Assembly (NCBI GenBank): GCA_013239625.1
Contig: MU053561.1
Span: forward strand, 5,253,214-5,313,996
Reading direction: 5' to 3'
DNA length: 60,783 bases
DNA from: Lama guanicoe
Taxonomy: Eukaryota
Shown: positions 860 to 60,783 of the stretch, piece by piece
Layout: every line of letters begins with the position of its first letter
How positions within the stretch are numbered: position 1 is the stretch's first letter
Position numbers and translations under genes: made by a program
The notes under the pieces: generated by a model
Told to the model about the DNA's origin: nothing
What the model saw: only the letters and a program-made list of their open reading frames with translations
The model's database searches: none

Positions 860-2510
860 CTGCCGTCCCAGGCGCTGGAGGGAATGTGGCCCGACAGCGG
901 GGTGAGGTGGGGCCGCGCGAGGTGGGGCGGCGCCCACCAGGCTCCCAGGCAGGCAGTTCTTGCACCTGCCTTGTCGCGCCTGTAGTTGTAACCATAGCAA
1001 TCAGTGCCCAGGTACAGGTTCAAAACTGATTTGCAGCTGCATTCGCTTTTAAAGCAAAATCGCCCTCATCTGATAATATTAAGTTCCCCTTTCCTCTTCA
1101 TCAAACCGCTTATCCAAGGGTAAAAGGCCGGAGATTCTTTTACCTCACAAAGGTTACCAGAGGAAGAGGAAATTTATAAGTAACTATGGAGACCACCTCC
1201 TCCGTGTAAAATGAAGAAAGGGGCACACGGAGACAATAATGGGAACGCGCAGACGGACTATGAAAAGCCTTTAACATTGTTTCGGCCGTTAAGTCGGTTG
1301 GCGGCAACTCTCCGCCCAGCGGCGGTTGCGTCGCGATCCGGAGCGTGACTCGGCGCACGCTCTCTTTCGGCTCCTCCACTCGCCGAGCCGCGACGCTGAA
1401 TGGGTGCGGGGGAACTACCGCTCCCGTGAGGCTCTGCGCGGCCCAGGGTGCTTTACAATAGAGCTCGGTTGGAGGGGCCTGCGAAGAAGGGCTGGGAAGT
1501 TCCGCTTCCGGCATGTTCAGCTCTGGACGAAGAACGGCCGAGAAGTGGAGGGTTGGGGAGAGACTCCAATGCCCAGCGGGCCGTGCGCCGGTGGCGCTTG
1601 CGCGATACGCGGACGGGGGGGCGGTCGGGCCATTTAAATGTGTGTTTGTGGGTGAAATGGCTGCGCAGGTCGGAGCGGTGCGCGTAGTACGGGCGGTGGC
1701 GGCGCAGGAGGAGCCGGACAAAGAGGGGAAGGAGAAACCCCATGCTGGGGTCTCGCCGCGGGGAGTGAAGCGGCAGCGCCGAGCGAGCAGTGGGGGGTCT
1801 CAGGAGAAGCGGGGGCGGCCGAGCCAGGACCCTCCTCTCGCTCCCCCTCACCGGCGGCGTCGCAGCCGCCAACATCCCGGGCCGCTGCCGCCAACGAATG
1901 CAGCCCCAACCGTCCCAGGCCCTGTTGAGCCTCTGCTCCTGCCGCCTCCGCCGCCACCTTCGCTGGCACCCGCCGGGCCCACTGTCGCTGCCCCGCTCCC
2001 GGCCCCGGGCACCTCGGCCCTCTTCACCTTCTCGCCTCTGACGGTGAGCGCGGCCGGGCCCAAGCATAAGGGCCACAAGGAGCGGCACAAGCACCATCAC
2101 CACCGCGGCTCTGATGGTGACCCCAGCTCCTGCGTTCCGGGAGAGCTCAAGCACAAGGACAAGCAGGAAAACGGCGAGAGGACCGGAGGAGTTCCTCTCA
2201 TCAAGGCCCCCAAGAGAGGTGAGAGCAGGCGAACTGCCCCGAGCTTGGGCTCTCTCTGTTGCGATATCCCGCCCCTTTGGCCCTGAAAGAGGCCAGCCCT
2301 GTGCTTACCTCCTGCTGCTGTACTCCCCTAAGCCCACTGGGGTGGACCCTGGATTTCAAACCGTTGACACAGTCTGACCTACTTGAGGCTTCTTGCTTCG
2401 AGGCCGAGCTGTCAGTTACTTCCCCCCTGACCAGTCCCCCTCCCCGAGCCTTTACCAACGTTTGTTTTCAAATTCGCCAGGGTTTCCGCGCCGCGCGGTC
2501 CTTGGCGTGG
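860..2510. promoter_or_regulatory. CpG island / TATA-less promoter of RSBN1
   Basis: High GC and CpG density against an AT-rich background. Tandem ETS-type sites GGAAGTTCCGCTTCCGG just before ATG 1513, GC boxes, and a YY1-like AAATGGCTGC at 1655-1664. Confidence 0.9.
1513..2218 (+). CDS. RSBN1: RSBN1 exon 1 (Pro-rich and His/Lys-rich N-terminus)
   Basis: [11 protein letters not shown]...IKAPKR, donor G|GTGAGA at 2218/2219, phase 1. Confidence 0.95.
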
Positions 2511-11500: not shown

Positions 11501-14500
11501 TTAATACCTTGGTGTGTATTTCTCCAGATACTTTTCTGTGATGTATATATAAAAAATACATATAGATCAGTCATACTTTTTTCTCTTTAGGTTCTTCGCT
11601 TTCCTCTAGAATATTTTCCCTAGAAAATATGCCTGGCCTGTTTATTATTTAGGACTCAGCCTAAATGTCACCTCCCAAAGAGAACTTCCCCAGCATTTAG
11701 AGTAGCGTACTGATACTTTCTCTTTCTAGTCCAATGAGATTGTAAGGTCCAAGAGAGTAGGGATCATGTCTGTCTCTGTCAACACTGTATTTCTAGTGCT
11801 CAGAAGTGTCCCTGGGATGTAGTAGATACTTAATAAATGTTTGAATGAATGAATATTTAATATTATCAAAATGGAATCAGATTATACACGTGTTAGGTGC
11901 TTTGGAAAGAAAGGTAAGATATATATCTCTGACCTTAGATTGCTTGTAGTCTAGAGGAAAGGTGGAAAATTAAATGTGTAATAACACAGAATGTGGTAAA
12001 GTTCTGTAATAGGGGAAGTATAGTGTTAAGGAAGCACATAGGAGGAGTAGCTGTCCAGTTGGGTTGGGAAGAGTTGTTAGAGAAGGCTTTCTGGAAGCGT
12101 GACAATATAAGCATTTTTGTAACCTTGTAATTTGTCAGTTCTTTTCATCTATAATATAATTTATAATGGCTGGGTAGGATTTTATCAGAACGTAAGTACC
12201 AGAGTTTAATCAAATCCTGATGTTAGACATTTAGAGGATTCCATAAATAACACTGTCATGAATGTCTTTATCCTTTCTTAGTTATTTTCTTGGGTAGTTT
12301 TTACTTGGGGGTGGAATTTATGGGTCTAAGAATTATAAATATTTTCAAGGCTTTGGTGCATATATCCATTTTCGGGGGAACCAGATTGTCCTCCATGAAG
12401 GTTGTACCCAGTTTATATTTCTAATGATAGTATATAAGAATGCCTCACCCCCAAAAATATTGTGAGTTAGGTAGGCAGAATGGTGTCTTATTTTGCCTTT
12501 GTTTGCTTTGTCTAAATGAATCACAGTAATTTGTAGACAAATAGGATAATATGATGAACTTCAATTTAGATTTTACAGTGGTTTTTGAATAGCTATTCGG
12601 TACAGTATGGCATATGTGAAATGATCTGGATATTACCTTTAGTTTGGATTGCAAGTCATATTAAGTTATATGCTTACCTTTGCATTACCTACTTTTTATC
12701 ATAATATTCAACCGAGAATATTTTTGTGTTTTAAGATCTTTGTCTCATTCATTTTATAAACATATAAATTATAATGACAAATTCAGAGAAACTGAGAATA
12801 AGCTATTTAGTTTGAGATCAAGTACCTTAAGAAGCTTGTATGTTGACACTAGGCCTAGCAACTAACTTCTTTTTAATTATTGTGGCCAGAAACACCAGAT
12901 GAAAATGGTAAAACCCAGAGAGCTGATGATTTTGTCTTGAAGAAAATAAAGAAGAAAAAGAAAAAGAAACACCGAGAAGATATGCGAGGACGACGCCTTA
13001 AAATGTACAATAAGGAAGTACAAACCGTCTGTGCTGGCCTGACCCGCATCAGTAAGGAAATCCTCACCCAAGGACAAATAAATAGCACTTCAGGTGTTAA
13101 TAAGGAGTCCTTCAGGTATCTGAAAGATGAACAGCTGTGTCGATTAAATTTGGGCATGCAAGAATACCGGGTACCCCAGGGAGTACAAACACCTTTTATG
13201 ACTCACCAGGAGCATTCTATTCGTAGAAATTTCTTAAAAACAGGTACTAAATTTAGCAACTTTATTCATGAGGAACACCAGTCCAATGGTGGTGCTCTTG
13301 TCCTTCATGCTTACATGGATGAACTCTCATTTTTGTCTCCAATGGAGATGGAGAGATTTTCTGAGGAGTTTCTTGCTTTGACATTCAGTGAAAATGAGAA
13401 AAATGCTGCTTACTATGCTTTAGCAATAGTGCATGGAGCGGCCGCTTATCTCCCAGACTTCTTGGACTACTTTGCTTTTAATTTCCCGAACACTCCAGTG
13501 AAAATGGAAATTCTGGGCAAGAAAGATATTGAAACAACCACCATTTCAAATTTTCACACTCAGGTAAGGTAAAATCATTGTTAAATTATTTAGTAAATAC
13601 AGGTTACAGTATCTCAAAAGTATTAACCTCGTTCTGTTGCTTAACACATAACAGTACACTTCTGATAAAAATTCATGGTGGTGAAGGTGGTTCATATTGT
13701 TTGTTTATACCTCTAATTGAAAAATTCTAATTGCTGAAGTTCTTTGGGATGTGGATTGTTACTTGCTTGGTCTAAGAAATGTGTTAAATGTCTTTACAAG
13801 TCTTTGGAAAACCAGCTTGGAAACCGATAGTTTTTCACAAATCGGGTAATGTTAGTATGGAGGATGTGATTTAGATCTGGTAGCATCAAGGCAACTTTAG
13901 TTAAAACTTACCTTTTATGTCATAATAAAACATACGAGGACATTGGCCTGTTTATTTGTCAGGTTTTTGCTGTTTCTGTTTCTCTTTCAGTAACTTGTTG
14001 GCAGTCTATCCCAGAAACATACCCCATTTATGTGACTTGGAAGTGTCACTAGGAAGACGGCCGTAGACTCTGCTCCTTCTGCCTATGCACTGTTGTAGGT
14101 GAAGGCATTTTCTGAAGCTTTGCTTGGGCAGCTAGGCTTAAGTCAGCAGGGAAACCTCTCCTTCCTTTTTAACCAGTTTTTTCAATGAAGTTATTTTAGG
14201 GCATAAAAAGTTGATAATGTATCCTATTTTTTTTCTTGCTTGCTTTTCTCATAAGGATTATGAATACATGAATGGTCAGCTGTAAATTTGTATTATAGAT
14301 ATAAATTCTGCACAGGTTTAGTGAGAATATTTAACTTTTTAGAGATTTATGATTATATAACCTCTTTTTTTTTTGGGTTATCTAATAATTTGCTGCCATT
14401 CTTTTCCTTAAGATTTTTTTTTAGATAAATAGACTGTTACATAATAAGACTCTCAGCTGCCTGCATTATAGTGGTTTCAAGCCACTTAGGTTTATATGAA

Positions 14501-17500
14501 ACCTTCTTTAACTTGAATCTTTTTAGTGATCCTTACCATCCTTGCCTCCAATGAGGGGAGCATCCAGTTTAGATTTATAAGCTTCAGAATTTCTCTAATT
14601 GAAGTTCTCTCTGCAGTAGAGAGAGCAGGAGCAGCCAATCTGGAGAGGTCGCAAGATGGGGCTGCCCAAGACGTTGGAACACCATGTGCAATAAAGGGCT
14701 TCGTCTTGGATTTTGGCCTTGTTACCACAATCAGGTACCGAAGTGCTGACTTTTGTAGTAGATTTTGTTTTTTCTTTTTCTTTTTTTTTTTAAAAGAGGA
14801 GTTTTGCCCTTTGAAGGTTAAGGAATCCTATTTTTATAAATATTGCAAAAGGGACTGAAAACAGTTCTCTTAATTTAGTCCATAATCATCCTAAGTCCCT
14901 CTTTAACAAAGAAAGATATTGCTGAGAGCAGAATTAATGTGCTCTGTCACTTTTTTAGTTTAGGAAAATGCAGCAAATTTTCTCTTCTAATTGATAGAAC
15001 AGCAAGCATATCTGAGAAATAAGCCAGAAATTTGGGTGAAAAAAGTCTTGGTTTTGTAATGATGACTTTTTAACTTTCATATTAGTTAGTCTCTAGTGGA
15101 TCAAGCTTATATATCAATAGACAGTACCCAGACTGAATAGTTAATAGAAGGAAATGTCTCTAAATATTCCCTGCTGATTTTTGTCCTCCAATTAATTTTT
15201 TAAATGGAGCTGAAATTTAAATGACTGTACCAACAACTTACCTTGAGATTTACTTAGAGATTTATGAAATAATGACTTTATAAGAATGTATCAAATTATT
15301 ACTAACTTGGAAATCATTAATCACTTCAACCACATAAGAATATTGAGGACTATTCAGTAAGTCTTGTGCTCTGGTGATCCTGGAACTTAATTTTATTTAT
15401 GAATTTTTAGTCATTTCAGTCATTCAGACATACGGGGTGGGCAGGGGAGGTTGAAGTAGCCAACGAAACTATAAATTTGCAACTGTAAAACTTTGGCACA
15501 TGATGGGATGGAAGCTAACACAGTAGTTCAGATTTCTTTGGCACTTCATAGTTTATAGAAATGCTTTCACATTCATATCTTAATATTTGGAATAATCTGT
15601 GGGATGGGTAAGCAGTTTTATCTGTTTTCCATTGAAGAAACTGAGGTTTGGAGATGTTCATTGTTATGCAAGGTCATGTAGCTAGTAAGTGGAAGCAGTC
15701 ACTGTGCACACTTACGCCACTTGAATAATAGGTGCATCATTTTACCATACTCCTTCCTTCCTTTAACATTTGGAGAAGGGACTAGGCTTTTATTTGTCTA
15801 AATAAAAGCACTAGTCAGTGCTTTTTATTTATGCGTTTTAGTCAGTGAAATTAAAATATCTCAGTTTAACACAGTATTCAGAATGCTATTCTAATAGTTT
15901 TTACAGATACCTTTAGATTGTTGGGAATTAAATGAATACCCTAGGTATTTTGGACTTCAGTGTTTTGTGAAGTCATATGAAATTCTGTGCAGCCTATAAA
16001 TGAAATGAAGTACATTTTTTATTATCTTAGAGATACAGCTAATGGAAGTTATTTATAGTTTAAATAGGTAGACATGATAATTATTCATGACTGACTGACT
16101 AACTGACTTCCTTCCTTCCTTTCTTTCATTCTTTCTTAATGGAGGTACTCGGAATTGAACCCAGGACCTCATGCATGCTAAGCGCGTGCTCTACCACTGA
16201 GCTATACATTCCCTGCTTCATGACTATATTTCAAGATAGTTTATTCAGCAATCATTTATTGAGAATGTACCATGTACTGCACATTCTGTTCTGAAAAGGA
16301 TTAATTGATGAGCTCAATTTAGTGGAAGAGATGAATAAACCAGCAATTGTAATACAGTTTGATAAGTACTAGAATGGAGGTATGCATAGGGAAAACCTTA
16401 TAATGGAGCATAGTTTGTGGTGTTCCCTAACTGAGATGTGAAGTGATTAGAAAAGGCATTTTAAAGCGTGTGATGCTTGAGTAGAGTCTTGAAAGAAGAT
16501 TAGTACTTAGCCTAATACTAACACTTTAAGCAAAGGGAAAAATAGCCTATGCAAACACATGGAGACATTAGAGAATGTGGAATTCTTCAGAAGCTGCAAA
16601 TTCTTGACATGGCAAGAGTACATGCTGACTGTTAAGGGGTGGTGGGAGTTAACACCAGAGGGGTAGACAAAATCAAAGTTGTGAGGACCTTTTTATGATG
16701 TGCTTTAAACAAAAGTTAGTACTTTTTCCCAAAGGTAATGAATGGGGAATCACTGGTGAATTTTAATAGGGGAGTGCTATCAAGTTATGTTCACAAAGAT
16801 TACATAGTAGTGTGAAGGGTGGAATTGAGGAAAATGAAATTGGAAGCAAGACTGGTTAACTATGATAACCAGATCAGAAATGACCCATGTCTAAACTGAT
16901 ATTGACACTAGAAAGGAAGGAATGAAATTGGAGAAATAATTAGAAGTTGGGGTTAATTGCACTTGGTGAGTGAGAAGGATAGAGTCTTAAAATGTGGTTT
17001 GGACAAATGGATGGATGGCTGTGCTGATCACAGAGTTGATACAGGGTTCAAAAAGTTGGTTTCTAAGGGTGTAAGGTGTTGATGAATTGTTTGAGATATT
17101 TTATGTTGAGATACTTGTGAAGATGAACAGAAATATCTGTTAGGTAGTGAAATACATGGATCTAAGATTGGGAGACATGAGAAGCAGAAGTTGGACCATT
17201 AGCATATGGGTGATCCAGGCACAGCATTAGAAATGGAAGAAATGAAGCTAAGGATGGAATTCTGTGATGCACCTGTATGTATGAGGAACATGGAAAGAGA
17301 ATAAAAAGAAAGAGAAGTAGAAGGAAGATGATAATACAGGTTTTTTCGGTTTTAAGAATGATGGAGTAGGGGGGGAAGGTAATAGTTCAGTGATAGAGCA
17401 CATGCTTAGCATGCACAAGATCCTGGGTAGAATCCCTAGTACCTCCATTAAAAAAAAAAAAGAATGATGGAGTGATTAAATATCACATCCGTATGTGAGG

Positions 17501-24219: not shown

Positions 24220-27200
24220 NNNNNNNNNNNNNNNNNNNNNNNNNNNNNNNNNNNNNNNNNNNNNNNNNNNNNNNNNNNNNNNNNNNNNNNNNNNNNNNNN
24301 NNNNNNNNNNNNNNNNNNNNNNNNNNNNNNNNNNNNNNNNNNNNNNNNNNNNNNNNNNNNNNNNNNNNNNNNNNNNNNNNNNNNNNNNNNNNNNNNNNNN
24401 NNNNNNNNNNNNNNNNNNNNNNNNNNNNNNNNNNNNNNNNNNNNNNNNNNNNNNNNNNNNNNNNNNNNNNNNNNNNNNNNNNNNNNNNNNNNNNNNNNNN
24501 NNNNNNNNNNNNNNNNNNNNNNNNNNNNNNNNNNNNNNNNNNNNNNNNNNNNNNNNNNNNNNNNNNNNNNNNNNNNNNNNNNNNNNNNNNNNNNNNNNNN
24601 NNNNNNNNNNNNNNNNNNNNNNNNNNNNNNNNNNNNNNNNNNNNNNNNNNNNNNNNNNNNNNNNNNNNNNNNNNNNNNNNNNNNNNNNNNNNNTTTTTTT
24701 TTTTGCCTTTTTCTTTTTAATCTTCTAGCGCCCATCTCTATCTCCTGGCCTTTGACCCCTTCTTCCATCTTCAGAGTGCATCAGTCCAATCACTGCTTCT
24801 GTCATCACATCACCTTCTCTCTGTGGCCAAGTCTCCCTCTGCTTCCTTCTTATAAGGACACTTGTGATTACACTTAGGGCCCACCTGGGTAATTCAGGCT
24901 CTCTCCCCAGCTCAAAATCCTTAATCTGTTCACAGCTGCGAAGTTCTTTTGCCATAGCATATAACAGTCACAGGTTCTAGAGATTAAGACCTGGATATCT
25001 TTGGGAGCCATTATTTAGCCTAGTGCACACTTCAGTCTCATCATGTCCCAGAGTGAAGATACCACCTCCTCACCCAAACCTGGTCCTCTCCTCCAACAGA
25101 AAGAGTAGTTTCTTCATGAGGTTACAAAGGGCAGAACATGGGAGACATCCTTGATACTCGTTTCTCTCCTCTGTCATAACCGATCTTTCTGTAAGTCCAG
25201 GCAATTTTATCTCATGGATATTTTTCAGATTAAAAAAAAAACTTTTTAAAATCAGCTCCACTGCTAATGGCTTAGTCTGTTGTTTCTAACCTAACTGGTC
25301 TCTTGTCTTTCAGAGTCCCTTTGAGAAAACAAAACCAAACCCCAAGCCCCATTCCCCACTAAAAAAACAAAGGCAAATTGGGTAACTTTCCTTTCCTCTT
25401 TACTACTTTAGATCCTTAGTGATTTCCCAAATTCTTAATGTAGTCTTTGAGACTTTCCCTAACCCAGCCACAGCTCATTTCTCCAGTCTCATGTTTATTT
25501 TTCTCTTTTGTTTTCTGTTCAGCATCAGTAGCTTTCTTTTAGACCCTGGAAAGTGTGATGCTTAAAGGATTTTTTTTTCTTTAAACTTGTTTTGTAGATT
25601 TTAATTCACTGTTACTTTGAGGAATAGTTTGTCCCCTGTATCAGGATCCCATGTCCTACAAATGCCAGTCAGAAGATTTGTTATAGTTTATAATTAAATG
25701 CTTGTGTAGTGTCTGCCTCTCTCTACTAGACTGTAAGTTTCCAGGGGCCAAGAATGGGTCTGGTTTGCTGTATCTGTATTTAGGACAGTGTCTGGCATAT
25801 AATACACAGTAAACATTAATTGAGTGGATGATAGCGGCTTTCCTGTACATCCTGTTCTTTATTTAAAGTTATGTGAGTCTACTCTTTTGTGATAAGCTTC
25901 CAAGTATTTGAAGATTATTATGTGTCTCCTTTAATCTTTTCAAGTCAAATACTTTTGAAATATATTTAATTTCATCACTCTTCCTAGAATTTGTATGGTT
26001 TCCAAGTCACTAATCATCTTAATTGTTCTCTTTTGGCTGTGCTCTTGTAATAGACTTTTTTTTAGCCCAGAGCAGGAGATAATAATCCAGGTGTTGTAAT
26101 CTGTGTAATACAGAGTATTGCCTCCCTTAGTATAAAGTGTGCAAGATATAGGCTAAACCACCAATAACAAAGAGCTCTCACATACAGTGGCTAGAACAAA
26201 ATAAGTTTCTCTCTGAGTAACAAGTCTAGAAGTAAGCAGCTCTGTTCGTGATGTCATCTAGGATTCTGCTTTCCTTCTATCTTTAAGTTTTGCCATTTCC
26301 TTTGGTGGTGGTGTCATGTGCATGCTTGAACTTGGCCCAAGGGAGAAAGAGGATGTGGAGAGCCAGCCACTTACTTACAAAGGCATGCTCTAGAAATTGC
26401 GTATGTAACTTATGCTAACATTTTACTGTCCATAACTTAGTCACAGATCATACTTAGCTGCCAAGGAGTCTAGCTCATTGGCTATATGCCCAGGAAGTTC
26501 TGTTACTAAAAAGAAGAGGAGAATAATTATTTTGCTTGTTTGGCATTAGTATCACAATTGGTACACGTTGAATTTCTGGCCGTAAGTGCTTTTCCATCTT
26601 TAAATTTGTGCAGTTAATTATTTAAATACATTGGAAACGTTAGCATTTATTAAATTATTCAATACAAGTGATACATACTGTTAATTAGCTTTATTACTAC
26701 TACCTTTTGGGGAGGGGCAGAGTTTAATGGCTGATTATTTCTAGGCTCAGCAAACATATTCAACAATTTCTCCTCTTCATTTTCTTTCTCTTTCCAAATA
26801 AGAAAGAATGCTTTATATTTATTCATGTCACATATTAATTATCCTATGTGTTTGCATTTTTTTTGTTGTCTTTGAGTGCCATACTATTGAATTTAGTGGT
26901 ATTTGAATTAGGTAAACTTGAAATACCGTGATATAACAGTGTTAATTCAGTCTAACTTTGTGCAAAATTTAAAGTAATGTGAATCCCTTCAAATTAATAA
27001 TCCATTAAGAGTTGTATAATCTCAAAACTAGCAGGCCAAGTAAGTTAACGAAAACTACCACATGGCAGTGTACTTCTACAAGATTGGTCTCTTAAGTGAG
27101 ATTTAAATTGTGACAGGTCTTTAAGAAATTTATCACGTAGCTTGAAAGCCTTTCTTGGAAGGCATTTCTGATAATTGGGAATAGTGGCAGGTGGTATTCG

Positions 27201-30200
27201 GAGGAGACTGATACTTCTTATTAGCCCAGAAAGCATAGTGTTCCTAGAACTGGTGCTGAAGTTAAAGCTGCTGTAGTCATTTTGGGTACTAGGCTTAGAA
27301 AGGCTAGAATACTGCTTAGAAAAGTTCCCTTGCTTCCCCTTCTTTATCTCTATGTCCCATAATCATCCTCTTTCCCAGACTTTCTACACTGGCTTTTTAC
27401 ACGTGATGATCACACAAAGAAATGGAAGGTAATTCATACGAATATATGCAAAGTATTCTGGCCTAGGCAGTTGTTGTTTAAGGATCACCTAAGGAGATTT
27501 TGGGGGAAAGATTTGTAAGGAATTAGGAAATCACTGCTATTTATAACAAGATCTGAGACCTTTTATGGGTTTATGTGTATGTGTGGGATGATGTTAAATT
27601 GTCTGTGGAAAAAAATGGATGATTCTGAAAATCCTGCTGAAGAACTTAATAGTAAAGAACTGTGTACTAGATGTTCATTTATACTTTCTGTTGAGGCAAA
27701 ATAGTAACAATTGATTCTTAAAAACAATTTTTTTGAATGTTTAATAGAGACCCACCTTACAAAAGCATAATTACATGTTAGGCTTTTTCAGTTTAGTCTA
27801 CATCTTAGCTAAAGTAGAATTTGCTAGGTTACTGATCTGAGGTGGAAATCCTAGTTAGAATCCAGTGTTTTTAGTCTAGACATCTGTATACATAGGATCT
27901 GTCTCTACATTTGAGAAACAGTCATTCTGAATTGGGGATAGGAATATTAAGAACATACGTGAGATGATGACCAGAAGAATAGTAAGAAGCTTGCATTGAA
28001 TCATTTGGTAGATTTTGTTTGAATGTTAGGATTCTCTGGGCTACAAATTTGTATAGAATATGCTAAGTTTACTAGAGAGTTGATACAGAGAAAATGTCTC
28101 TGTGCTTGTAGGTGACATTAGACTTCAGAAAAAGGAAAGATTATGAAGGGTGATCAGGCTGGCTTCCAGAAGAAAAGTCTTGAACTGATCTTTGAAAGAT
28201 AAGATTTAGGTTGTCAGAAAAGAGGACATTCTAAGAAGGGCAGATGCAAGAGAAAAATCAGTGCTGACAGAAATAAGTTCGGCATAAGTTGCTTAGAGAA
28301 AATGATTAGGCTGCCTAGGGTGGAGGATCTTACATGGAGGTAATGGGAGATTGGGTTTGCTAACAGTCATCCGGGTATATGGCCTGATGTGAAGGCTTTC
28401 AAGCTAGGGAGTGCAAAGTGAGTATGGAAGATTAATTTGACAATAATACTTTTTTTCTTTCTTGTCCTGCCAGTTTTAATTTGCTTACTGTTTTTTTTCC
28501 CTAATAAAGATCACTTTAAAGTTTTTACAAAGTTCCAAAATCATCATTCTCTGAGAAGTTTAATTATATCTTAATGTTTCCAGTATTTCTTTGAGATGCT
28601 GGGACCATAGACCAACTTGGACTTGAAATTTCTGTTTGTGGCACATATATCAATGTATTTGTCAGTGTGCTAGGGTGCCTTTCTGTAACTATTGACTTTA
28701 TCCAAGGTACTGACCTTGGAGTTCTTAGTATGTAGAAGAAATAGCAACATTGGAAATGATACCTTATCCTAATTCTTATATTACAGTGTACTTCAGTCCT
28801 TTCTCCCCCCTCTTTCGTTTTATCTCAGGTCAACAGGACATACTGCTGTGGCACCTACCGAGCAGGTCCTATGCGGCAGATAAGTCTTGTTGGAGCAGTA
28901 GATGAAGAAGTTGGTGATTATTTTCCAGAGTTCCTTGATATGTTAGAAGAATCACCATTTCTGAAAGTGAGTGTTTTTCAAATTATTAAAGTTCTGATCA
29001 TTACTTAAATGGACACTTTCCATTAAAAAGTTTTAAGCTAATCTTGTCTATTAAAATTAAATTTTCTCCACTGTTTTGAATAGAAATGTTTAGAAAATTA
29101 TTGATATAAAATACTTAACTTCAGTTATTCTTTTTAACATATAAATTACTGTCTAATGAAGCATTTTTTTCTTTATGTACACATATAAACTTCTTAGAGC
29201 TTTCTTTGTTTTTTTGGGGCTTTTTTTTTTATCAGGGTACTGTGGATTGGACCCAGGACCTTGTGCATGCACTCTACCACTGAGCTGTACCCACTTCCCC
29301 CTCTCAGGCTTTCTTTTAGGTGTGAAGGGTTAATTTATAAATAGTTAAAAAAATTTTTTTTGATGGTTATTATGTCTGTTTACTAAATGGAACAAAATCA
29401 TTTAAGTCTCATGCATTTGATTTCTTTGTATAACATTTTCTGTTTTTATATATTCATTGTGCTCTCCAACTTTTTTTAAACTGGTATTTAAACAGAATTA
29501 AAAAAAATCTTAGCAAAAAAAATTTTTTTTAATGTAACTTTTTCATCTGACTTCCAGATGACTTTGCCCTGGGGTACACTTTCCAGCCTTCGACTCCAGT
29601 GTAGGTCCCAGAGTGATGATGGGCCTATCATGTGGGTAAGGCCAGGAGAGCAGATGATCCCTACAGCAGATATGCCAAAGTCACCCTTCAAAAGACGACG
29701 GTAAACATTTACTTTTCTCAAATAATCAAAAAGCACTTTATTTTAGTTGATTGCTTATAGAAATGATTGAGACCTGAGCAGTTTGAAAACCATTTGTCTA
29801 AATTATTTGAAGAGCTATGTTAAGTAAATCTTCTAGTTGTCAGTTCCTTAGTCCAGTTCACTCATTACACAGTTATCAGAGTAAGGAATCCTACCAAAAA
29901 ACAAATTTAATTTTTACTTCTTTTCTTAAAACCTGGATCCTAACTGCCTGCAAGATAAATGCTCAAACTCCTTTGTATGGTTTACAAGGATCTTTCATAA
30001 TCTGGCCCCAACAGTATCTCTTCTAGATTTGTCTGCTTCTAGTCCACTCCAGCCACACTGAATTCTGTTTCTAAACCATGATCTTTCACAACTCTGTGCT
30101 TTTGTGCTGTTCTTTTTACTTGGAATGGCTTCCCCTCCCCTATCTTCCTCTCTACCTGGCAAACTGTTTTAACAAATTTCAAAACTTAAGTTGGACATCA

Positions 30201-33200
30201 TTTCTTTTGTGAAGCTTTTCTTTGTTTCCTTAGACAGTTAGTCGTTCCCTTCTCTGCTTACACATCATTCTGTTCATTAATGATCTATTTACAGTTTTTT
30301 GGTTTTTACTAAAGTTTGCCTTTTTTTGAGGACAGTCTTATTCTTCTCTGTCTTCATGACACATAGCAAGTGATCAGTGTTTACTGAATGAAATCAGTAT
30401 TCTCCTGTAGTAATTCATATTGGGCTAACATATTTTTTTGTTTCAGACAAAATTTATTTTGCTTCAAACAAATGTAGATTAACTTACTCTAGTACTACAA
30501 AAAATCTCATCTAATGAGACTGGAAATGATTTATATTTGCTTAGACTATAGAAACCCCTAAGTGAATTTTAATGGACTGGTCTAGACCTTACCTTAAAGC
30601 TCATAGGAGAGTGATACTAGAACTAAGTATGAAATAATCCTAGCTACTTAAGATAATCATGAAAATACTTTGTAAGAACTATTTATGAATGCAAGGTGGT
30701 GGCATGGTAAAACATGGCAGTAAACCAAAACTTCTGCACATTGCTAGGCTATAGCATTAATTGTACATCATGATTATGAATCTTGATAGTCTTAATTCTT
30801 CAGTATTGTATACCTTTACTCTATAGTCTCCCAAAAGGAAATGACCATTGTTTGTTTCCTGATTATTACAAACTTAAAAAAAAATCAGATAATAGGAAAA
30901 AGTAAAAAGGCAAAAAATACCTATAATCCCACCCATTTAGGCATATTAACCTTTCAAATTTTGGTCCATGTATGCTCATAAATTTTCTTTGTACTTAAAT
31001 GAACTCATTCTTTACATGATGTTTACTTTAAAACTTGGTTTTTTTCCCCCTTAGATTTATGTGTTACATTAAAATGCAGCCATATCATCATTTCTAAATG
31101 ACTATGTAGTTTTGACTGTATGGTTGTATCAAGATTTATTTAACCAATTCTTTATTCATGTAAATTGTTTCCAGTTTTTCAATATAAATGGTATTTTGAC
31201 AAACATGACAGTGATATGCTAGAGCCTGTTTGTACCAGCTCATAGGGCGATTATTAGCCTCACAATTCCACATTGAGTGAGGTCACATTAGTAGCTTGAA
31301 ATTGGCCATGTTGAGAGTATTTATACCACAGAAAGCACCATATGAGCTACAAATCAGCCTTCTACCCTCTAAAGTCAGTTGTTAAACATGTACAACATAT
31401 TGATTATGGCTGACTGACTTAGAGGGCTGGCTGGCTGACTGGTTGATAGGGAGGGAGGTGCATGTGCATGTTTATTTTCTTGGTAGAAAGTACTAAAGGC
31501 TCAAAGTATATACATATTCCTAATTGACTTCCAGGAATGTACCAATTTATACTCTCACCCATATAGTGAGACAGTACCTTTTCCCCCTACCCTTCACTAA
31601 CATTCATTTTAACTTTGTTGATTGAACAAAAATGTGTTATTTTAATTTGCTTTTCTTTTAGGGGTTTGTATTTCTTTTGTGATTCCTTTTTAATTTTTCT
31701 ACTCATATTTCTATTGGGGTGTTTTTAATGTGTAAAAATCCCTGTGTATTATAACTATTACTTTTTTCTTACGTTGCAAGTTTTTCTCATTTTTCTTTTA
31801 GCATAAACTTTAGCTTAAAGGTTTTTCTTTACTCCATTTTTTCCAGTTTCTTTTTTTTTTTTAACTCACAGAAATTTTTATTTATATGTTTTCAGATTGA
31901 TCTTTTCCTCTGAGGTTTCTGTCAGTGGCAGGCTTTGAAAGGCCTTCTCTCATTTAGTATTATGAAATACTTACCTACATTTTCTTCTAGTACATCGGTG
32001 AATTCAGTATTTATATATTTTATCTAGCTAGTATTCCTTTCAGTATGAAGGGAGAGAGTTAGTTTAACATTCTTTTCAAGTAGTTAGGCAGCTGTACCAA
32101 CGTCATTTATTTATTTCTCCACTAACCTGAGGTGCTATTAAATTTTATTTCTATTGGATAAAATATTCTTAGGAGAGGCATTCAAAAGCACTTTGAATTA
32201 GAGTGAATAAAACAGAACTTAAATACTAATGTCATCTTTCTGTGTTAATGAGAATACCCTATTGCTTAAAGTGGTGAAATCAATGTGAAAAGCTGTCTAG
32301 TTATCAAGGGCACTGCTAGTGAAGATGATCTTTAAATTTATGAACTCTAGAGAACTATATGTACAGGGTTTTAAAACAGCAAACAGTACAGTAGGGTTTA
32401 TAATGAAAAATCTGGCCACCTTTGCCTCCAGAGGCAAACACCTTTTTACCAAAGGCAAAAAAACACTTCTGTTTTTTATGCCTGTTTTGTTTTGTTTTGT
32501 TTGTTTTGTTTTAAGGCTTTGACAAGAAATTTGTGAGTTTTTTGGTATAATAGATAGGGATTCCTTCCCTTCATGGGTTCTTCAGATAGTTAACTGACCC
32601 TTACTTTATGCTCTTCATCCCCTTTCTACTTTTGTTAACTGTGCTTTTACATTGTTGAGGTTAATTCAGAGTCTCCTTTAAAAACATAATTAGGTTCTAT
32701 ATGCTTTGTCAATAGGTATGTTCTAAAATTTGAAAACCAGTAAGTGGCATTTTAAATATTATGAGTAGGTAAGTTTACTGCAGTCCAAACTAATAGGCTA
32801 AAATTTGCATTCTAGGGTTCCAGTGGTTTGTTATCACTCAGAGAAATAATACACAAAAAGATCTTTCTTTTCTTTATTTCACCTAGATACGGAAAATTGT
32901 GCCGCATTTTAGTTTGTTTCATATTTGGATTGTGCTGATTTTTACTCTCTTTATTGCTTAAGATACATTACTTTTTTCTAGAATCACACTGACCTTTTCC
33001 TCTATAACTGTGCCTTTGGGTATTGCCTTTTTATATAGCCTTTTTTGGGGGGAGAGTGTTGAGTTACATTGCATTCTTTGCTTTTATCTTAACGAATCCA
33101 GAATTTTAATCATACTGTCTGCTCTAACATGTCACTTTGTACCTGGAAATCTTCTGGAACTCTCTTTTCTTACCTCAGTGTGAAAAGCTTATTTCACAGT

Positions 33201-36200
33201 TCCCTACCTAGGACTTCCCGTTTAGTAGTTTTCTGCTTTAACCTATGGTTGTCTTCCTCGGTTTCTTTCTTTTTCTTGTCTGAGAACATGCTCAAGTTAT
33301 ATTGTAAGAAAAGGTAGATATTGAGTCATATGTCTGGAAATTTTTTTCTGTCATTAAATGTGATAGTTTAGCTGGAGTTCAGAGGATGTATTTCCCCTTA
33401 GAATTTTTAGCACTGCCTTTGTGTCTTCTGGTATCTATTGTTTAAGAGATGTTTTAATGCCAGTGTAATTTTTGTTCTTTTGTAAGTAACCTGCTTTCTT
33501 TTCTTCTCTGAAAGCTTCATTTCACAATGATATTTTTGGGTCTTTATTTGGGTCTTTCATTCTATTTTCATTTTTAAATCCTTTTTGTTTTTTGGTGGGT
33601 CCCTTAAAGATTCATGTCCCCTTTCATTTCTCAGAATTTTTATTGCTTAATTTCTTCAGTAATTTATTTATTTTCTCTATTATTTCTTCCTGAAACTACT
33701 GTTGGTTAAATAATGAACCCAGTTTGATTATCCTCATTTCTTATTTCTTATCCTTTTGCTTTCAGTTTTCTTATTATGTTTCTTATTATCTTTTTGCTTT
33801 CAATTTTGGGATATTTACTTGACTCTTGGCTTATGACAAAATCCTTTAATTTCAGCATTGTTTATTTTGGTCTTTGTCAGGCTGCCATCGGCTGTCTTCA
33901 CACATCTGGTGATTGGTTGACCCATTCAAGTTTAGGAATAAAGCATTGGGCTTACTGGGAGTTCTAGTTGTATTTCAGTGAGGCTTGTCAATAGGTAGGT
34001 TTCACTTTAGAGTTAACAGGCATAGAAGTGGACATTAAAGGATGTTCCAAATACCAGAGGATTATGTTAGTTCTAATCGTATGGTTAAGTTCAGTATGTT
34101 TAGAGAAGAACATGCAGGGTTTTTTTGGCTGCTTGGTATGGTGGCTTGGTTGTCAGGATACTTTTGATTACAAGCAATAAAACTGATTCAGACTGGTTCA
34201 TAAAATAAAATGTTATCCTCTATATATCAAGAAGTTCAGAGAGGCAGACTCTAGGCACCATATAGTCAATGGCTCAGTGCTGTCATAAAGGAACCAGGTT
34301 TTTTCCTCTCTGCTCTGTGATTCTCTGCCTAGGCTTTGTATTTGCAGTGGCTTCCTTTATGGTTGCTGGTTGGCTGTAGCTGTTCTAGGTACCACATCTG
34401 GATCTGATTACATCTGATAGAAGAGACTCTCTCCTTTTACTTCTTTCTTAGGAGCTAGGAAACTTCCCAGAAGTCTTCCTGTATATTCCACATTCATATT
34501 CCAGATTGCCTCTCATACTGCTAGCCAGATTCATGCCCGTTCCTAAATCAGTCACTGGCAAATAAGCTTAGCATAATTTGCCAGAACTTGTCAGGATCTA
34601 CCTCTGGAGCTTGTGAATGAGGTTCCCTATAGGGTAGGAGCAGATACTTAATAAAAATCAGAGTTTTATCAGGGAAATTAAGATGAAGGATAGTTGCTCC
34701 TTGGTCACCCATGAGGCTAAATGCCTGACTGTCCAGATTTCTACCACGAGGTGGCAGGTGACAGGTTTATCTGCAGAATTTCACTTTATTTGGCTCTTTC
34801 TCAGTTTAACTTCATTTCTATCCATTAGCATCATTATACTAGCTTTTTTCTCTTGACTCTTAGGTTTCTCCAAGGTTTGTTGGGCAGGCCTGCTGCCTTT
34901 TTAGCTGCCATTCCCTTCTTATATAGTCTAGGCCTGTGGCTTTCTCTGCTCAGTTTCATTAGTTCAAGACACTTAGTCATTTTTCATCTTCCAAAATGTG
35001 TTGATTTTGTTCATTCACTGATTCATTTCCTTTGTTGCTTCATATTAATTCCTTTACTGTCACCTTTAGATTATTATATTTAGGAGGTTTTGCACACATA
35101 AAAAAAGCAGAAGGTAAATGTAATAAATTCCCTTGTATTCAATATCAACAGTTGTCAATTCACAGCCAATTCTCTTTCATCTGTACACTCATCCACTCCT
35201 CCACTACTCTTCCCTACCCCTGCCACATTAGTTTGAAGCCTTTTACTTTCATTTTAATGTGGAAGGAGATCACGTAGATGCTCAGTTGCCACCTTGAATC
35301 AAGTCTAGTAGAATATTTTGAGAGTTAAAAATGACTCAGGGCCAAGAAACATACAGTCTTGAACTTTGAATTGTATTTTCTGTTGCTTCATAGACAACTA
35401 AATTTTATATATTCACACACTACATTTGAGCCAATCAAAGACAGAGCTTCTGTGTTACCATGGCGTACTGAGAGAAGGTAATCACATTCAGCATTACACT
35501 CTAGTGTGTTAAATGCTAATGATCAAAATCATTGAACCCCTCTCAGCCCTCATTGTTTTTAAAATTTGGTATTTTAGCAGACTTCTTTGCCTTATTGCTG
35601 TTAATGCTTTGTCCCCTTCCTTTACTTCACAACCAAATCAACTACAGATCAATGAATGAAATTAAAAATCTCCAGTACCTACCTCGGACCAGTGAACCCC
35701 GTGAAGTCCTCTTTGAAGATAGGACGAGAGCTCATGCTGATCATGTAGGTCAGGGGTTTGACTGGCAGAGTACGGCTGCTGTTGGGGTTTTGAAAGCTGT
35801 ACAGTTTGGTGAATGGTAAGTTAATAGAACTCAACTGCATGATTGGTTTATATTGTCTTAAGATATGGACTCAGTTTGAAAGGTTGGGGACAATTTTTTT
35901 AAAGTGTGGTAAAATACACATAACATAAAATTAAAATCTTAACTGTTTTTACCTGTGCAGTTCAGTAGTGTTAAGTATATTCACATTGTTGTGAAACAGA
36001 TCTCTAGATCTTTTTCATCTTATAAAACTGTAACTCTGCACCCATTAAACAATAACTCTCTTCTCCCCTTTCCCCCCAGTTCCTGGTAACCATCATTCTA
36101 CTTTGTTTCTATGAATTTGACTACTTTAAATACCTCATAAGTGGAGTCAGTCATTATCTTTTTATAATTGACTTATTTCAGTTAGCATGATATCTTTAAG

Positions 36201-38319
36201 GTTCATTATATTGTACCATGTATCATTTCCTTCCTTTTTAAGGCTGAATAGTATCCATTATATGTATATGCCACATTTTGTTTATCCATTTATCTGTCAG
36301 TGGACACTTGGGTTGCTTCCACCTTTTGGCTGTTATGAACAAATAGCTCTTCATGTCCCTGCTTGCATTGTTTTGGGTATATACCCAGAAGTGGAATTGC
36401 TAGACCATATGGTAATTCTGTTCTTAACTGTTGTTTTTCATAGAGGTTGCACCCTTTTACATTTGGTTGGGGCCCAGTTTTAACAAGGCTCAGAACATAG
36501 AATTTAGCTTTTTTAAAAGCTGTTTTACTTTGTTTTTCATATTTATGCCTTCAGGGCCTTCAGTATTATGTTTGAGTTTCATCTGACCTTTTTCTTAGAA
36601 GTATATAGTTCAATCACAGGTTGACAATAAGTATTTCAAGTTAAAGATCATTTAGCTTTTTTCTGCTATTTTGAAAACTGAAAGGTATAACACTTTCATG
36701 GCTGAGATGTGTTTGAGGTCTCCATTTCATTCTGCCCTGATGTTGACATTATAGGGTGGCAAGGAGATGTGGGCAGAGTGGTTAGAAGATGCCAATGTAA
36801 CTAGTTTACAACAAAACTATTTGTTTTTAGTCATTGATGTTTTAGTTTTACAACAGCTAATTTTCATTTTTTAAAAGTGGCTTTATTGATTGACACAGCA
36901 TTGTAAACTGACAAAACTTCAATAAAATTTCTTTAAATTAAAAAAAAATCAGCTTTTTTTTTAAGTTGATTAAAGAAACAAAGATATACTTTGTCCTTAG
37001 AATCTATGCATCTATTTCTGTGCCAGTGTACAGGAACTGTCATTTTCTTTGTTATCATTTCATTGTGATCACTTTCAGTTATGAGATGCTTGTTTCTAAA
37101 GCTTAATTTTGCTAATTTTAGGAGTGACCAACCTCGTATAACCAAAGATGTGATTTGTTTTCATGCTGAGGATTTTACTGACGTTGTACAGAGACTTCAG
37201 TTAGACCTTCATGAACCTCCAGTTTCCCAGGTAATGACTTTAGCTTATTTATTACTCTTTGAGTGAGATTTTGGAAATAAGTATTTTTGCCCGTTTTATT
37301 TTATAGATGTATACATGGGATGGTGAATTTAATTTTATTACTATTAAAGTCTGTGTGTGGAGGATGTTGAAAATCATTAAAACAGAGCTTCCCAAGCAGA
37401 ATGCTTAGGATCTCTTCAATATTTGGGATGCCAGGTGGGCCTGGGATGGTCACAGGGCCCAGGGAGCTCAGTTCTGGCCATGAGCAATCTCAGCTGTTAA
37501 CCCCATTGCACCGTGTGTCCTCACCTGCAAATGGTTGTAAGACACTGAGGGAGCAGATGAATGTTGCCCTTATGTATGTCAGAGAATATTGATTAGCTGC
37601 ACTTTGAAATACTTATTTAAATGATTCCCTAGGCCTTCCTAACTTCAGCCTGTACTTTTTACTAAAAAATAGTGAAATATGAGGGAAAATGTGTCTCAAG
37701 AATTACAGGAAATTTTAGAAATTTGTATATCATTTAGTATTGCTTAACTTTAATTTGACCCTCCTGTTTCCCTATGCTAATTGTAATATTTTATTTGACT
37801 AAATCATTACATAATTTACTTTAAAATCTCATGCCACTTTTCTCCTCTCTTCAGTGTGTTCAGTGGGTGGATGAAGCAAAACTTAACCAAATGAGGCGGG
37901 AAGGCATTCGTTACGCTAGGATTCAGCTATGCGACAATGATATCTACTTCATCCCTAGAAATGTCATTCATCAGTTCAAAACAGTGTCAGCGGTGTGCAG
38001 CTTAGCCTGGCATATAAGGCTTAAACAGTACCACCCCGTTGTGGAAGCCTCTCAAAACACAGAAAGCAGTTCTAATGTAGACTGTGGAAAGCGAGAATTA
38101 GAAGTTGACTCCCAGTGTGTGAGGATAAAAACTGAACCTGAGGAAACATGCACAGAGATGCAGCTTTTAACAACTGCTTCATCATCCTTCCCACCTCCAT
38201 CTGAACTTAATCTACAGCAAGAGGAGATGACTCAGCCTATTCCAGTTTTAAAGGTGGAAAGTAGACTGGACTCTGACCAGCAACACAATCTGCAGGAACA
38301 TTCAAGCACTCCTGTGTGA
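1513..38319 (+). CDS. RSBN1: RSBN1 (round spermatid basic protein 1 / KDM9), join(1513..2218,12890..13563,28829..28966,29558..29700,35648..35815,37122..37230,37855..38319), 800 aa
   Basis: Seven exons with GT-AG boundaries and consistent phases total 2403 nt. The translation matches mammalian RSBN1 as recalled ([11 protein letters not shown]..., [28 protein letters not shown], ...HNLQEHS). Confidence 0.97.
4378..4597 (+). mobile_element. MER3-like hAT-Charlie MITE
   Basis: Contains GATGATGGAAAT...AAATGTGGCTAGTGTGACTGAGGAACTGAATTTTTAATTTTATTTAAT...ATTGGACAG, typical of MER3. Confidence 0.8.
4674..4784 (-). mobile_element. Short 5'-truncated L1 3' end with target-site duplication (TSD)
   Basis: ATTGAGGTATAATTGAC... 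L1 tail. Flanking repeats ACATTTT(A/G)ACTTTT at 4660-4673 and 4785-4798. Confidence 0.65.
5085..5245 (+). mobile_element. MIR SINE
   Basis: MIR core GGGCAAATTACTTTAATCTCTCTCAG...TCTGTAAAATGGGG...GATTAAATGAG. Confidence 0.7.
5420..6815 (-). mobile_element. Old L1 (L1MC/MD-like) 3' UTR + ORF2 end
   Basis: Antisense L1 motifs ATAAATGGAATAAT, TTTTACATTCCCACCAGCAATGTATG, TTTGCAAATATTTTCTCCC, GTTGAAAAGACTATTCTT. Confidence 0.85.
6820..7085 (+). mobile_element. MER58B-like hAT MITE
   Basis: GAGCTAAGAATGGTTTTTACATTTT...AATAAAGTTTTATTGG...AGAAAAAGTTTGTTGACCTCTG. Confidence 0.8.
8230..9085. mobile_element. Cluster of three degraded MIR SINEs
   Basis: TTTGGAGTCAGACAG (+ strand); TCTCATTTAATTCTTACAATAA and CCCCATTTTACCAATAAGAAAC (- strand). 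Confidence 0.6.
9217..9270. repeat. Tandem repeat, 3 x ~17-18 nt (TTTATTTTCAGAAA(A)GAA)
   Basis: Seen directly in the sequence. Confidence 0.85.
9864..9950 (-). mobile_element. ~90-bp L1 3' stub with TSD AAGACATTG
   Basis: Poly-T followed by ATTGATATATAATTGACCTATAAC. TSD at 9855-9863 and 9951-9959. Confidence 0.75.
11620..12105. mobile_element. L2 fragments
   Basis: L2 3' end AATAAATGTTTGAATGAATGAAT at ~11833, AGAGAAGGCTTTCTGGAAG. Confidence 0.6.
12890..13563 (+). CDS. RSBN1: RSBN1 exon 2 (poly-Lys NLS, start of conserved domain)
   Basis: Acceptor GGCCAG| at 12889, ETPDENGK...SNFHTQ, donor CAG|GTAAGG. Confidence 0.97.
16093..16216 (-). mobile_element. tRNA-derived SINE (camelid Vic-1 type)
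   Basis: Reverse complement reads TATAGCTCAGTGGTAGAGCACGCGCTTAGCATGCATGAGGTCCTGGGTTCAATTCC (A and B boxes). Microsatellite tail, TSD TTCATGACT at 16084-16092 and 16217-16225. Confidence 0.85.
16240..17270 (-). mobile_element. L2 LINE fragment
   Basis: ATTCAGCAATCATTTATTGAG (L2 3' end, antisense) followed by a degraded L2 body. Confidence 0.7.
17368..17459 (+). mobile_element. tRNA-derived SINE (Vic-1 type)
   Basis: GGGGGAAGGTAATAGTTCAGTGATAGAGCACATGCTTAGCATGCAC...TACCTCCATT plus A tail. 14-bp TSD AAGAATGATGGAGT at 17354-17367 and 17460-17473. Confidence 0.88.
17660..17786 (+). mobile_element. MER5A-like hAT MITE
   Basis: AGAAATGCAGTCTCAGACCCC...AATCAAAATCTGTATTTTAATAAGATCCTCAGGTGATTC. Confidence 0.78.
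18640..18775. mobile_element. MER5-family MITE
   Basis: AAAATGCAAATTTTGATT...TCTGCATTTCTACCAAG...GATGTTGGTGTTGCTGGTCC. Confidence 0.6.
19730..20330 (-). mobile_element. L1MC1/2-like 3' UTR
   Basis: AGAGCAGTTTTTGGTTCATAGCAAAATTGAGAGGAAGGTACAGAGATTTCCCATAT. Confidence 0.85.
20900..21065. mobile_element. MER5-family MITE
   Basis: CAGAGTTTCTCAAAC...TTCTGATTCACTAGGTCTGG...GCAAGTTTAAGAAATACTG. Confidence 0.6.
22520..23420 (+). mobile_element. Degraded old L1 ORF2 fragment
   Basis: CCAGAAATAGACCCAAATATATAT, AAAAAGAAATACAAATGGCC, GAAAATGAAATTAAAACC. Confidence 0.7.
23439..23530 (+). mobile_element. tRNA-derived SINE (Vic-1 type)
   Basis: GGGGTGGGGTATAGCTCATTTGTAGAG...GTTCAATCCCCAGTACTTCCATTAAAAAAAAA. 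Confidence 0.82.
23998..25028 (-). mobile_element. MLT1-type (ERVL-MaLR) solo LTR spanning the gap
   Basis: TGTATTAGTTCCTATCGCTGCT...CTTACAGTTCTGAAGG; CTTATAAGGACACTTGTGATTACA; ATATCTTTGGGAGCCATTATTTAGCC. Confidence 0.8.
24220..24693. other. Assembly gap (474 N) flanked by poly-T
   Basis: Run of N. Confidence 1.
26135..26530. mobile_element. Old MLT1J-like LTR
   Basis: ACAGTGGCTAGAACAAAATAAG, AACTTAGTCACAGATCATACTTAGCTGCCAAGGAGTCT. Confidence 0.55.
28829..28966 (+). CDS. RSBN1: RSBN1 exon 3
   Basis: Polypyrimidine tract + TCTCAG|, [17 protein letters not shown]...EESPFLK, donor AAA|GTGAGT. Not present in the ORF track. Confidence 0.96.
29205..29305 (-). mobile_element. tRNA-derived SINE (Vic-1 type, internally deleted)
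   Basis: Poly-T then GGTACTGTGGATTGGACCCAGGACCTTGTGCATGCACTCTACCACTGAGCTGTACCC, TSD-like GCTTTCTTT. Confidence 0.8.
29558..29700 (+). CDS. RSBN1: RSBN1 exon 4
   Basis: Acceptor TTCCAG|, [14 protein letters not shown]...KSPFKRR, donor ACG|GTAAAC, phase 2. Confidence 0.96.
29830..30395 (+). mobile_element. L2 3' fragment
   Basis: TTCATAATCTGGCCCC, ACTTGGAATGGCTTCCCC, TGTTTACTGAATGAA. Confidence 0.6.
31209..31403 (+). mobile_element. MER63-like hAT-Blackjack element inside a degraded L1
   Basis: GTAGCTTGAAATTGGCCATG...AGTATTTATACCACAGAAA...CAGTTGTTAAACAT. Confidence 0.7.
34150..34700. mobile_element. Old MLT1 (J/K/L-like) LTR
   Basis: TGTCAGGATACTTTTGATTACAAGCAATAAAACTG, GAAACTTCCCAGAAGTC, CCTAAATCAGTCACTGGC. 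Confidence 0.55.
35648..35815 (+). CDS. RSBN1: RSBN1 exon 5 (HxD motif HAD)
   Basis: Acceptor CTACAG|, [19 protein letters not shown]...AVQFGE, donor ATG|GTAAGT. Confidence 0.96.
35895..36465 (-). mobile_element. L1MB-like 3' UTR
   Basis: GTGGTAAAATACACATAACATAAAATT...TTCCTTCCTTTTTAAGGCTGAATA...GGACACTTGGGTTGCTTCCACC. Confidence 0.85.
37122..37230 (+). CDS. RSBN1: RSBN1 exon 6
   Basis: Acceptor TTTTAG|, [16 protein letters not shown]...EPPVSQ, donor CAG|GTAATG. Confidence 0.96.
37855..38319 (+). CDS. RSBN1: RSBN1 exon 7, coding part
   Basis: Acceptor CTTCAG|, [17 protein letters not shown]...EHSSTPV, stop TGA. Confidence 0.96.
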
Positions 38320-45260: not shown

Positions 45261-45459
45261 AGTTTTTTTGGTATGCTTTTGTTTTTGTTTTTTTCCCCTG
45301 GCAAACAGCCGGAGAATGAGACAGTCAGCAGCTCAGAGAGGCTGAGAGAAGCGGTTTTTGAGTTCTGCCCAAACTGGGAGAGTACCTTTCAGCAACTGGA
45401 CTCACTGACTGGTTTTTCTTTATTTTCAGTGAAATCCTATTCTCTGGCTGGAGACGCAG

Positions 45460-45504
45460 ATGGCCTCAAATGAGAGAGATGCTATATCGTGGTACCAAAA
45501 GAAG
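45460..45504 (+). CDS. PHTF1: PHTF1 first coding exon (exon 45430..45504), MASNERDAISWYQKK
   Basis: Acceptor TTTTCAG| at 45429, ATG at 45460, donor AAG|GTAATC. The peptide matches the PHTF1 N-terminus as recalled. Confidence 0.95.
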
Positions 45505-60612: not shown

Positions 60613-60783
60613 TTTTTTATTTATTTATTTATTTTTTCAGCACAATTTTTCAGTCATTCATGGACATATACACACTCATTGTCACATTTTTTTCTCTGTG
60701 ATTTATCATAACATTTTGTGTATATTTCCCTGTGCTATACAGTGTAATCTTGTTTATCTATTCTATAATTTTGAAATCCCAGT
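60613..60783 (-). mobile_element. Another L1 3' end nested in the preceding L1 (runs off the window)
   Basis: (TTTA)n tail, then TATATTTCCCTGTGCTATACAG. Confidence 0.7.

Follow-up and report, generated by a model that had tools for sequence, protein, structure and literature searches.

Intron 2 of RSBN1 contains a short block, at 14590-14795 of the window (the whole 60,783-nt stretch of Lama guanicoe DNA that was analyzed, from contig MU053561.1), whose motifs raise the question of whether the gene carries a poison exon, an alternative terminal exon, or a chance assembly of splice-like sequences. An earlier note on this DNA had proposed that inclusion of the block either triggers nonsense-mediated decay (NMD) or, through intronic polyadenylation, yields a protein of 460-484 aa. 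In the reading that we hold with considerable confidence, the segment 14617-14734 forms a conserved exon of 118 nt, which introduces a stop right after exon 2, likely sends the mRNA to NMD and is very likely the ortholog of a human poison exon. The earlier note had missed that the exon is annotated in human, that a second frame through it is opened by an internal donor of exon 2, and that a hairpin is predicted over its pyrimidine tract.

The 118-nt exon in RSBN1 and its orthologs

The gene in the window is the RSBN1 of a placental mammal, with an exon-1 protein that is 97-98% identical to records from pig, whale and cat. It was rebuilt on the forward strand as seven coding exons encoding 800 aa: the coding part of exon 1 (1513..2218), the 674-nt exon 2 (12890..13563), and exons 3 to 7 (28829..38319; individually 28829-28966, 29558-29700, 35648-35815, 37122-37230 and 37855-stop), which encode the JmjC core with H583 and D585 in exon 5 and H685 in exon 7. 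Intron 2 contains a 474-N assembly gap between T runs (24220-24693), and its length is therefore uncertain. At the start of the gene, in-frame ATGs lie at 1513 and 1657 (+), 48 codons apart; database proteins begin at either, and the human RSBN1 proteins from the two ATGs have 802 and 754 aa. In addition, the first two to three residues of exon 2 are missing from isoform 2 of mouse and from a turtle isoform, pointing to a nearby alternative acceptor at 12890 (+).

The 118-nt alternative exon (14617..14734, +) lies between exons 2 and 3. As the earlier note had stated, exon 2 ends in phase 0 at its usual donor in the joined models, and joining this donor to the exon through the proximal acceptor makes TAG the first codon and gives a 460-aa product, while the distal acceptor leads to a stop 24 codons later and a product of 484 aa. 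Frame 14618 runs through 39 codons of the exon without a stop, ending in phase 0. Upstream of the exon, a branch-point-like CTAAT is present at 14595-14599, with the putative branch A at 14598, 18 nt from the AG, followed by the pyrimidine tract TTCTCTCTG at 14605-14613 (together 14595..14613, +). The NAGNAG tandem acceptors CAG/TAG/ (14614..14619, +) end at 14616 and 14619, the proximal one being that of the human 118-nt exon and of most models, and the weak donor CAG/GTACCG (14732..14740, +; junction 14734/14735) splices to exon 3 in 24 in-frame models. The distal-frame TAA (14692-14694) lies within an AATAAA (14690..14695, +), a candidate poly(A) signal. These motifs all stand where the earlier note had placed them, and the U-rich tract beyond the donor is also present, at 14763..14791 (+; 26 of 29 T, 29-57 nt beyond the donor), 2 nt shorter than had been claimed. 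The contrast that had been noted between the block and the AT-rich intron is likewise real, with 52% GC in the exon compared to 35% in the intron, a value attained by 0.4% of 118-nt intron windows.

Two human catalogues contain this exon. Lim 2020 (PMC7347940) lists human RSBN1 chr1:113796186-113796303 (hg38) as an EI_NMD exon of 118 nt. To enter that list an event needed three or more junction read pairs and an inclusion of at least 3% in tissue RNA-seq, and its NMD label came from GENCODE or RefSeq. Mironov 2023 (PMC10123112) lists the same exon (chr1:114338808-114338925, hg19) as a GENCODE-derived 'annotated poison exon, PTC within'; its distance to the end of exon 2 is 1,060 nt, compared to 1,054 nt in the window. 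As far as the available parts of this GTEx study go, the single occurrence of RSBN1 is in the starting catalogue. The human NMD exon is therefore alike in gene, intron, length (118 nt), near-equal distance and a stop within the exon, while its catalogue rows make no mention of the internal exon-2 donor, the distal acceptor, the hairpin or the poly(A) site. Because gene, intron, length, distance and phase agree and the exon occurs in a squirrel model, 14617-14734 is very likely the ortholog of the annotated human poison exon. The comparison with NMD isoforms annotated for human, to which the earlier note had pointed, thus returned an NMD-inducing exon of equal length and position in the catalogue rows available.

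Ortholog proteins point in the same direction. Normal continuation into exon 3 was seen in 135 of the 187 RSBN1-related proteins examined, and seven of the 187 have their C-terminus precisely at exon 2's last codon (the 'isoform 3' of human/chimp and of orangutan, three bats, and the human and rat RefSeq 459-aa models). The poison-exon reading of the earlier note is supported by these seven proteins and by the human NMD exon; alternatively, the seven could use an acceptor at 13991, which is likewise stop-first. If the intron is read through instead, two residues are added, as in a blue-whale record and many Logan records. Both flanking junctions of the 118-nt exon are used in the human catalogues, as far as their rows extend, and in ortholog models, and it is this ortholog and catalogue evidence, not the motifs, that shows the exon to be real. 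The 24-codon peptide of the distal acceptor was found in none of the 187 proteins, and no convincing example occurred among 188 more (best 120 of 231 matches). Among these 188, which comprised many birds and turtles, few marsupials, and mammalian and Logan fragments, none end at exon 2 and the exon occurs only in a felid; as they represent the best 120 of 231 matches, absence beyond placentals is weak evidence. Twenty of 24 listed sequencing runs contained at least half of the words, and since the ranking selects intron-containing runs, no evidence was taken from them.

The felid exon was reconstructed from automated models of two species, Prionailurus (frame 14619) and lynx (frame 14618). These two frames resolve 115 of 117 bases, and 113 of the 115, AATAAA included, equal the window; by way of proteins, this bears out conservation in felids, cross-mammal conservation being a check that the earlier note had named. 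One change was found at 35 degenerate third positions, where neutral rates would predict approximately 4-7 (P 0.01-0.09). An ultraconserved element is a stretch of at least 200 bp identical in human, mouse and rat; the exon is unlikely to be one, since it has 118 nt and is variable among mammals.

Intronic polyadenylation and a second acceptor region

It is possible, although we consider it rather unlikely, that the 118-nt exon, or a longer form starting at 13991 or 14005, acts in addition to its cassette role as an alternative last exon that is cleaved after the AATAAA at 14690 and encodes a stable 460-484-aa protein without the catalytic core. Among the 13 AATAAA of the intron, this one, which is kept in felids, is followed by the 30-mer richest in T (26, compared to at most 19), yet at a density of 0.88 AATAAA per kb there is an approximately 10% chance of finding one in 118 nt, and the whole exon is conserved rather than the hexamer alone. 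The main U tract begins 68 nt past the hexamer, and a position 29-57 nt beyond a weak donor is the usual place of a TIA1/TIAL1 enhancer. The tract at 14763-14791 is thus presumably a TIA1-type donor enhancer, for which its spacing is the better suited, and possibly a poly(A) downstream element.

Some coding models do terminate in intron 2, namely the human and rat RefSeq models of 459 aa and a mouse model of 493 aa. A second acceptor cluster, a single-copy region identified from splice scores and tblastn, lies in intron 2 at 13991..14112 (+): an exon starting at 13991 has TAA as its first codon, one starting at 14005 has 15 codons and then TAG, and a candidate donor is found at 14098/14099. 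The segment 14005-14112 is homologous to the C-terminus of mouse XP_036018967.1 (tblastn E 8e-8, 58%), making 13991-14112 a candidate second poison or terminal exon. Because the mouse model maps to this second region, terminal forms may exist without necessarily passing through the 118-nt exon or its hexamer.

Active poly(A) sites follow poison exons more often than other cassettes (PMC13187750), and the NMD-escaping poison exons described there resemble the RSBN1 exon in combining a stop-bearing cassette with a nearby poly(A) signal. However, in that class the site lies in the downstream intron and has read support, while the RSBN1 hexamer lies inside the exon and is known from sequence. RSBN1 is also absent from the available immune-cell intronic-polyadenylation supplements of PMC5928244; the main text of the 2026 paper on NMD escape (PMC13187750), which lists its 451 events elsewhere, does not mention it either, and a full-text literature search never coupled RSBN1 with intronic polyadenylation. 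Compared to such a terminal form, a poison exon leading to NMD remains the preferred reading of 14617-14734.

An in-frame route through the exon and its predicted protein

The exon is spanned by two open frames, while an ordinary poison exon needs none. The second frame is reached from an internal donor of exon 2, CAG/GTATCT (13113..13121, +; junction 13115/13116, phase 2), which is found in ortholog models and in the window model and is the top-scoring of the 26 GT sites within exon 2. Used alone, this donor shifts the frame and the window model stops at 328 aa; combined with the 118-nt exon, the frame stays open and encodes 690 aa. Either event by itself is therefore unproductive and the pair restores the frame. 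A further GT, 5 nt beyond the usual exon-2 donor (13568/13569, +), also gives an open frame with the exon (841 aa) and is used by one sheep UniRef model (P0077). The 13115 donor additionally joins acceptors within exon 2 in P0038 and in Eptesicus P0025, in exitron-like events.

Of the 21 candidates in a search with the frame-14618 peptide, 20 proteins matched, 19 with an identity of 94-100%, and cluster members added four more among the matches listed. At least 23 RefSeq models from at least 22 mammal species in five orders splice from the 13115/13116 donor to 14617 and on to exon 3, and the exon sequence is also present in sheep, Eptesicus and Prionailurus models. The models are RefSeq predictions named 'lysine-specific demethylase 9 isoform X2/X3/X4' from whales, hippo, sheep, yak, musk deer, horses, rhinos, lynx, Myotis and squirrel, with the same peptide at 94-100% identity and the same junctions; they are automated models known from annotation alone, and none was identified from the window's own species. 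In the window's 690-aa model, 675 of 693 positions match the hippo protein. Between lynx X2 and X3 there is a one-residue difference at the junction, reflecting use of the distal acceptor, so that both AGs of the NAGNAG are used, the distal one by one of 23 in-frame models (lynx, 1 aa shorter). Among the matches listed, the 375 proteins included no primate, afrotherian, marsupial, bird or turtle model with the in-frame peptide.

KDM9 / DPY-21 is a JmjC demethylase of H4K20me2 with a known structure (PDB 5UQD; PMC6041165, PMC8241091). Residues 351-708 of RSBN1 align to this structure, with H583, D585 and H685 as the facial triad, and the triad and cofactor residues of PMC6041165 map to H583 and D585 (exon 5), K618 (exon 6), and Y677 and H685 (exon 7), all five of which are invariant in 61 homologs. 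By the same residue mapping, the 460- and 484-aa products lose the HxD of exon 5 and the distal His of exon 7, as the earlier note had held. The 690-aa form keeps the triad and drops residues 313-460, exchanging 148 residues for 39. Of the dropped segment, residues 354-460 are present in 60 of 60 homologs and are modeled as five predicted strands with pLDDT 89-98; the product therefore lacks about 30%, the N-terminal third, of the JmjC module. In the short-donor model, pLDDT is below 50 over residues 319-340 of the new peptide, a low score even though homolog residues stood opposite the peptide in the alignment behind this fold, which would favor folding, and the TM-score to 5UQD falls from 0.89 to 0.59 of the target. 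These predictions suggest that the 690-aa form would lose activity or stability. Pfam returned no match for four RSBN1 proteins, and the available text of the DPY-21 papers (PMC6041165, PMC8241091) describes no splice isoforms, that of PMC8241091 being without the terms 'isoform', 'variant' and 'splic'.

Frame compensation as such has been described (PMC12322889), for example in HPS1, where each of two events alone makes an NMD target and both together restore the frame; compared to that pair, the compensated product of RSBN1 drops a third of the catalytic module. The internal donor and the exon might act as a two-key gate in which either alone kills the mRNA, both together give a stable nuclear isoform that retains the iron triad without the N-terminal third of the JmjC module and works as a non-catalytic or dominant-negative H4K20 demethylase, and a hairpin over the pyrimidine tract sets the opening of the exon, which we regard as unlikely. 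A still more doubtful proposal is that the exon is kept mainly as a coding cassette, giving through the internal donor a 690-aa nuclear KDM9 isoform that retains the lysine-rich NLS and the iron triad and is non-catalytic or dominant-negative. The exact junction pair shared across so many species, the open window model, the near-identical peptide and a JmjC core that still folds in the predicted model are what such a cassette would produce, but automated annotation favors open frames, and the human catalogue rows list the poison form only. The groups without in-frame models among the 375 proteins count against a cassette as well.

The pattern of change within the exon also argues against a coding role. 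Compared to felids there is one synonymous and one non-synonymous change, and in these small numbers the exon shows neither the synonymous excess nor the kept frame of a coding cassette; third positions are conserved like the rest, and changes are mostly non-synonymous and radical. The 39-aa peptide varies at six of 39 sites across 24 models, including swaps of R/C, W/R and C/Y, compared to none of 245 in exons 3-7. However, residues 236-290, the low-complexity 5' part of exon 2, vary at five of 55 sites; peptide variation alone is therefore not decisive and is compatible with a coding role. In one Eptesicus model the frame switches within the exon, implying a 4-nt insertion that breaks the in-frame form, possibly through assembly or model error. 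Because the peptide is variable, predicted to be disordered and frame-broken in one bat model, the constraint on the 118-nt exon looks RNA-level. The in-frame 690-aa form is probably a by-product that is tolerated and that annotation pipelines retain on account of its open frame.

Splice-site strength, predicted structure and a possible mechanism

Splice sites were scored with splice matrices. The donor at 14734/14735 scores 1.8, compared to 1.3-8.0 for constitutive donors, and the acceptor of the 118-nt exon scores 4.0, inside the constitutive range. In intron 2, 36 of 873 GT and 23 of 999 AG sites score at least equally, as do 13 acceptor-donor pairs including the exon's own, and the intron holds 13 AATAAA and 37 CTAAY; with 13 such pairs, motifs alone do not prove the exon. 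Nevertheless, a pseudo-exon formed by chance in a locally GC-rich intron segment, with which these equal-scoring pairs, the weak donor and the lack of a counterpart in the paralog RSBN1L would be in keeping, is highly improbable given that both boundaries recur in annotations of more than 20 species and in two human catalogues, with approximately 98% conservation.

The block is single-copy in the genome, on which ground a repeat or retrocopy origin was rejected. A small-RNA origin was also rejected: PVT1_3, the sole Rfam row touching the block, reaches 13 bits where the cut-off is 45. Intron 2 of RSBN1L (approximately 9 kb, within 30 kb fetched) contained no counterpart, with only SINE-like, low-complexity or chance-level matches. 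A tRNA-derived SINE-like element is present in intron 2 of RSBN1 at 16140-16211 (-; Rfam tRNA, 43.8 bits), and SINE-like matches also recur in the RSBN1L intron.

Folding predicts a 10-bp hairpin (14604..14626, +) in which the pyrimidine tract pairs with the first 10 bases of the exon, with arms at 14604-14613 and 14617-14626 and the proximal CAG in the loop. Its energy of -13.2 kcal/mol (z -2.0) was matched by nine of 200 shuffles, for a window chosen after viewing the fold, and wider folds were unremarkable (z -1.0 for the whole region, z 0.09 for 81 nt). The predicted unpaired probability of the pyrimidine tract, 0.04, is the lowest among 24 pyrimidine-rich AG sites in intron 2 and lies below the 0.23-0.92 of the six constitutive acceptors.

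Taken as a working mechanism, inclusion of the exon would put a stop right after exon 2 and likely send the RSBN1 mRNA to NMD. The stop of the proximal form conforms to the 50-nt rule, the next junction lying 115 nt past the TAG and four more downstream (at 253, 396, 564 and 673 nt); that of the distal form, which conforms as well, lies 40 nt before the end of its own exon and 178 nt before the next junction. Inclusion may be held low by the weak donor and by the hairpin masking the pyrimidine tract, aided by the downstream U tract, and such low, tunable inclusion could trim the dose of an H4K20 demethylase. Where the weak internal exon-2 donor is used as well, the frame shifts would cancel, and the transcript would escape decay and encode the 690-aa protein without the N-terminal third of the catalytic module.

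At least four routes lead to a premature stop near exon 2 of RSBN1/KDM9: the 118-nt exon, skipping of exon 2 (a stop at 260 aa in the window model), use of just the internal donor, and probably the 13991 acceptor. This multiplicity suggests that unproductive splicing buffers the dose of RSBN1. Under cycloheximide, Rsbn1 in mouse neurons rises by 0.6 log2 (PMC11188260), and the event reported there is skipping of the 674-nt exon 2, not the 118-nt exon; inclusion of exon 2 goes from 0.90 to 0.49 at day 12 in a cycloheximide-sensitive NMD event. The searched supplements of PMC11188260 hold no NMD-inhibition rows for the 118-nt exon, and RSBN1 is absent from the readable supplements of PMC11632617, PMC8091538 and PMC8233366.

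Because the exon is catalogued in human, the main result here is confirmation across mammals: the RSBN1 poison exon is already known, and the in-frame route is a modest unreported twist. A literature search found no paper on the in-frame use, hairpin or second acceptor of RSBN1 and none that combined RSBN1 with 'poison exon', and looser searches yielded none as judged by title or the start of the abstract. The 118-nt exon readily lends itself to antisense targeting as a way to raise RSBN1. Should the double event produce a real protein, RSBN1 would be a clear-cut example of a chromatin enzyme in which one exon serves both as poison exon and as isoform switch; if it makes no protein, the 'isoform X2' found in many mammal annotations would be a by-product of the pipeline.

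Beyond RSBN1, a second GC-rich island at 44000-46000 is likely the promoter of the next gene, and the open frames near 52200-53700 and 60000-60700 are what we take to be LINE-1-like sequences.
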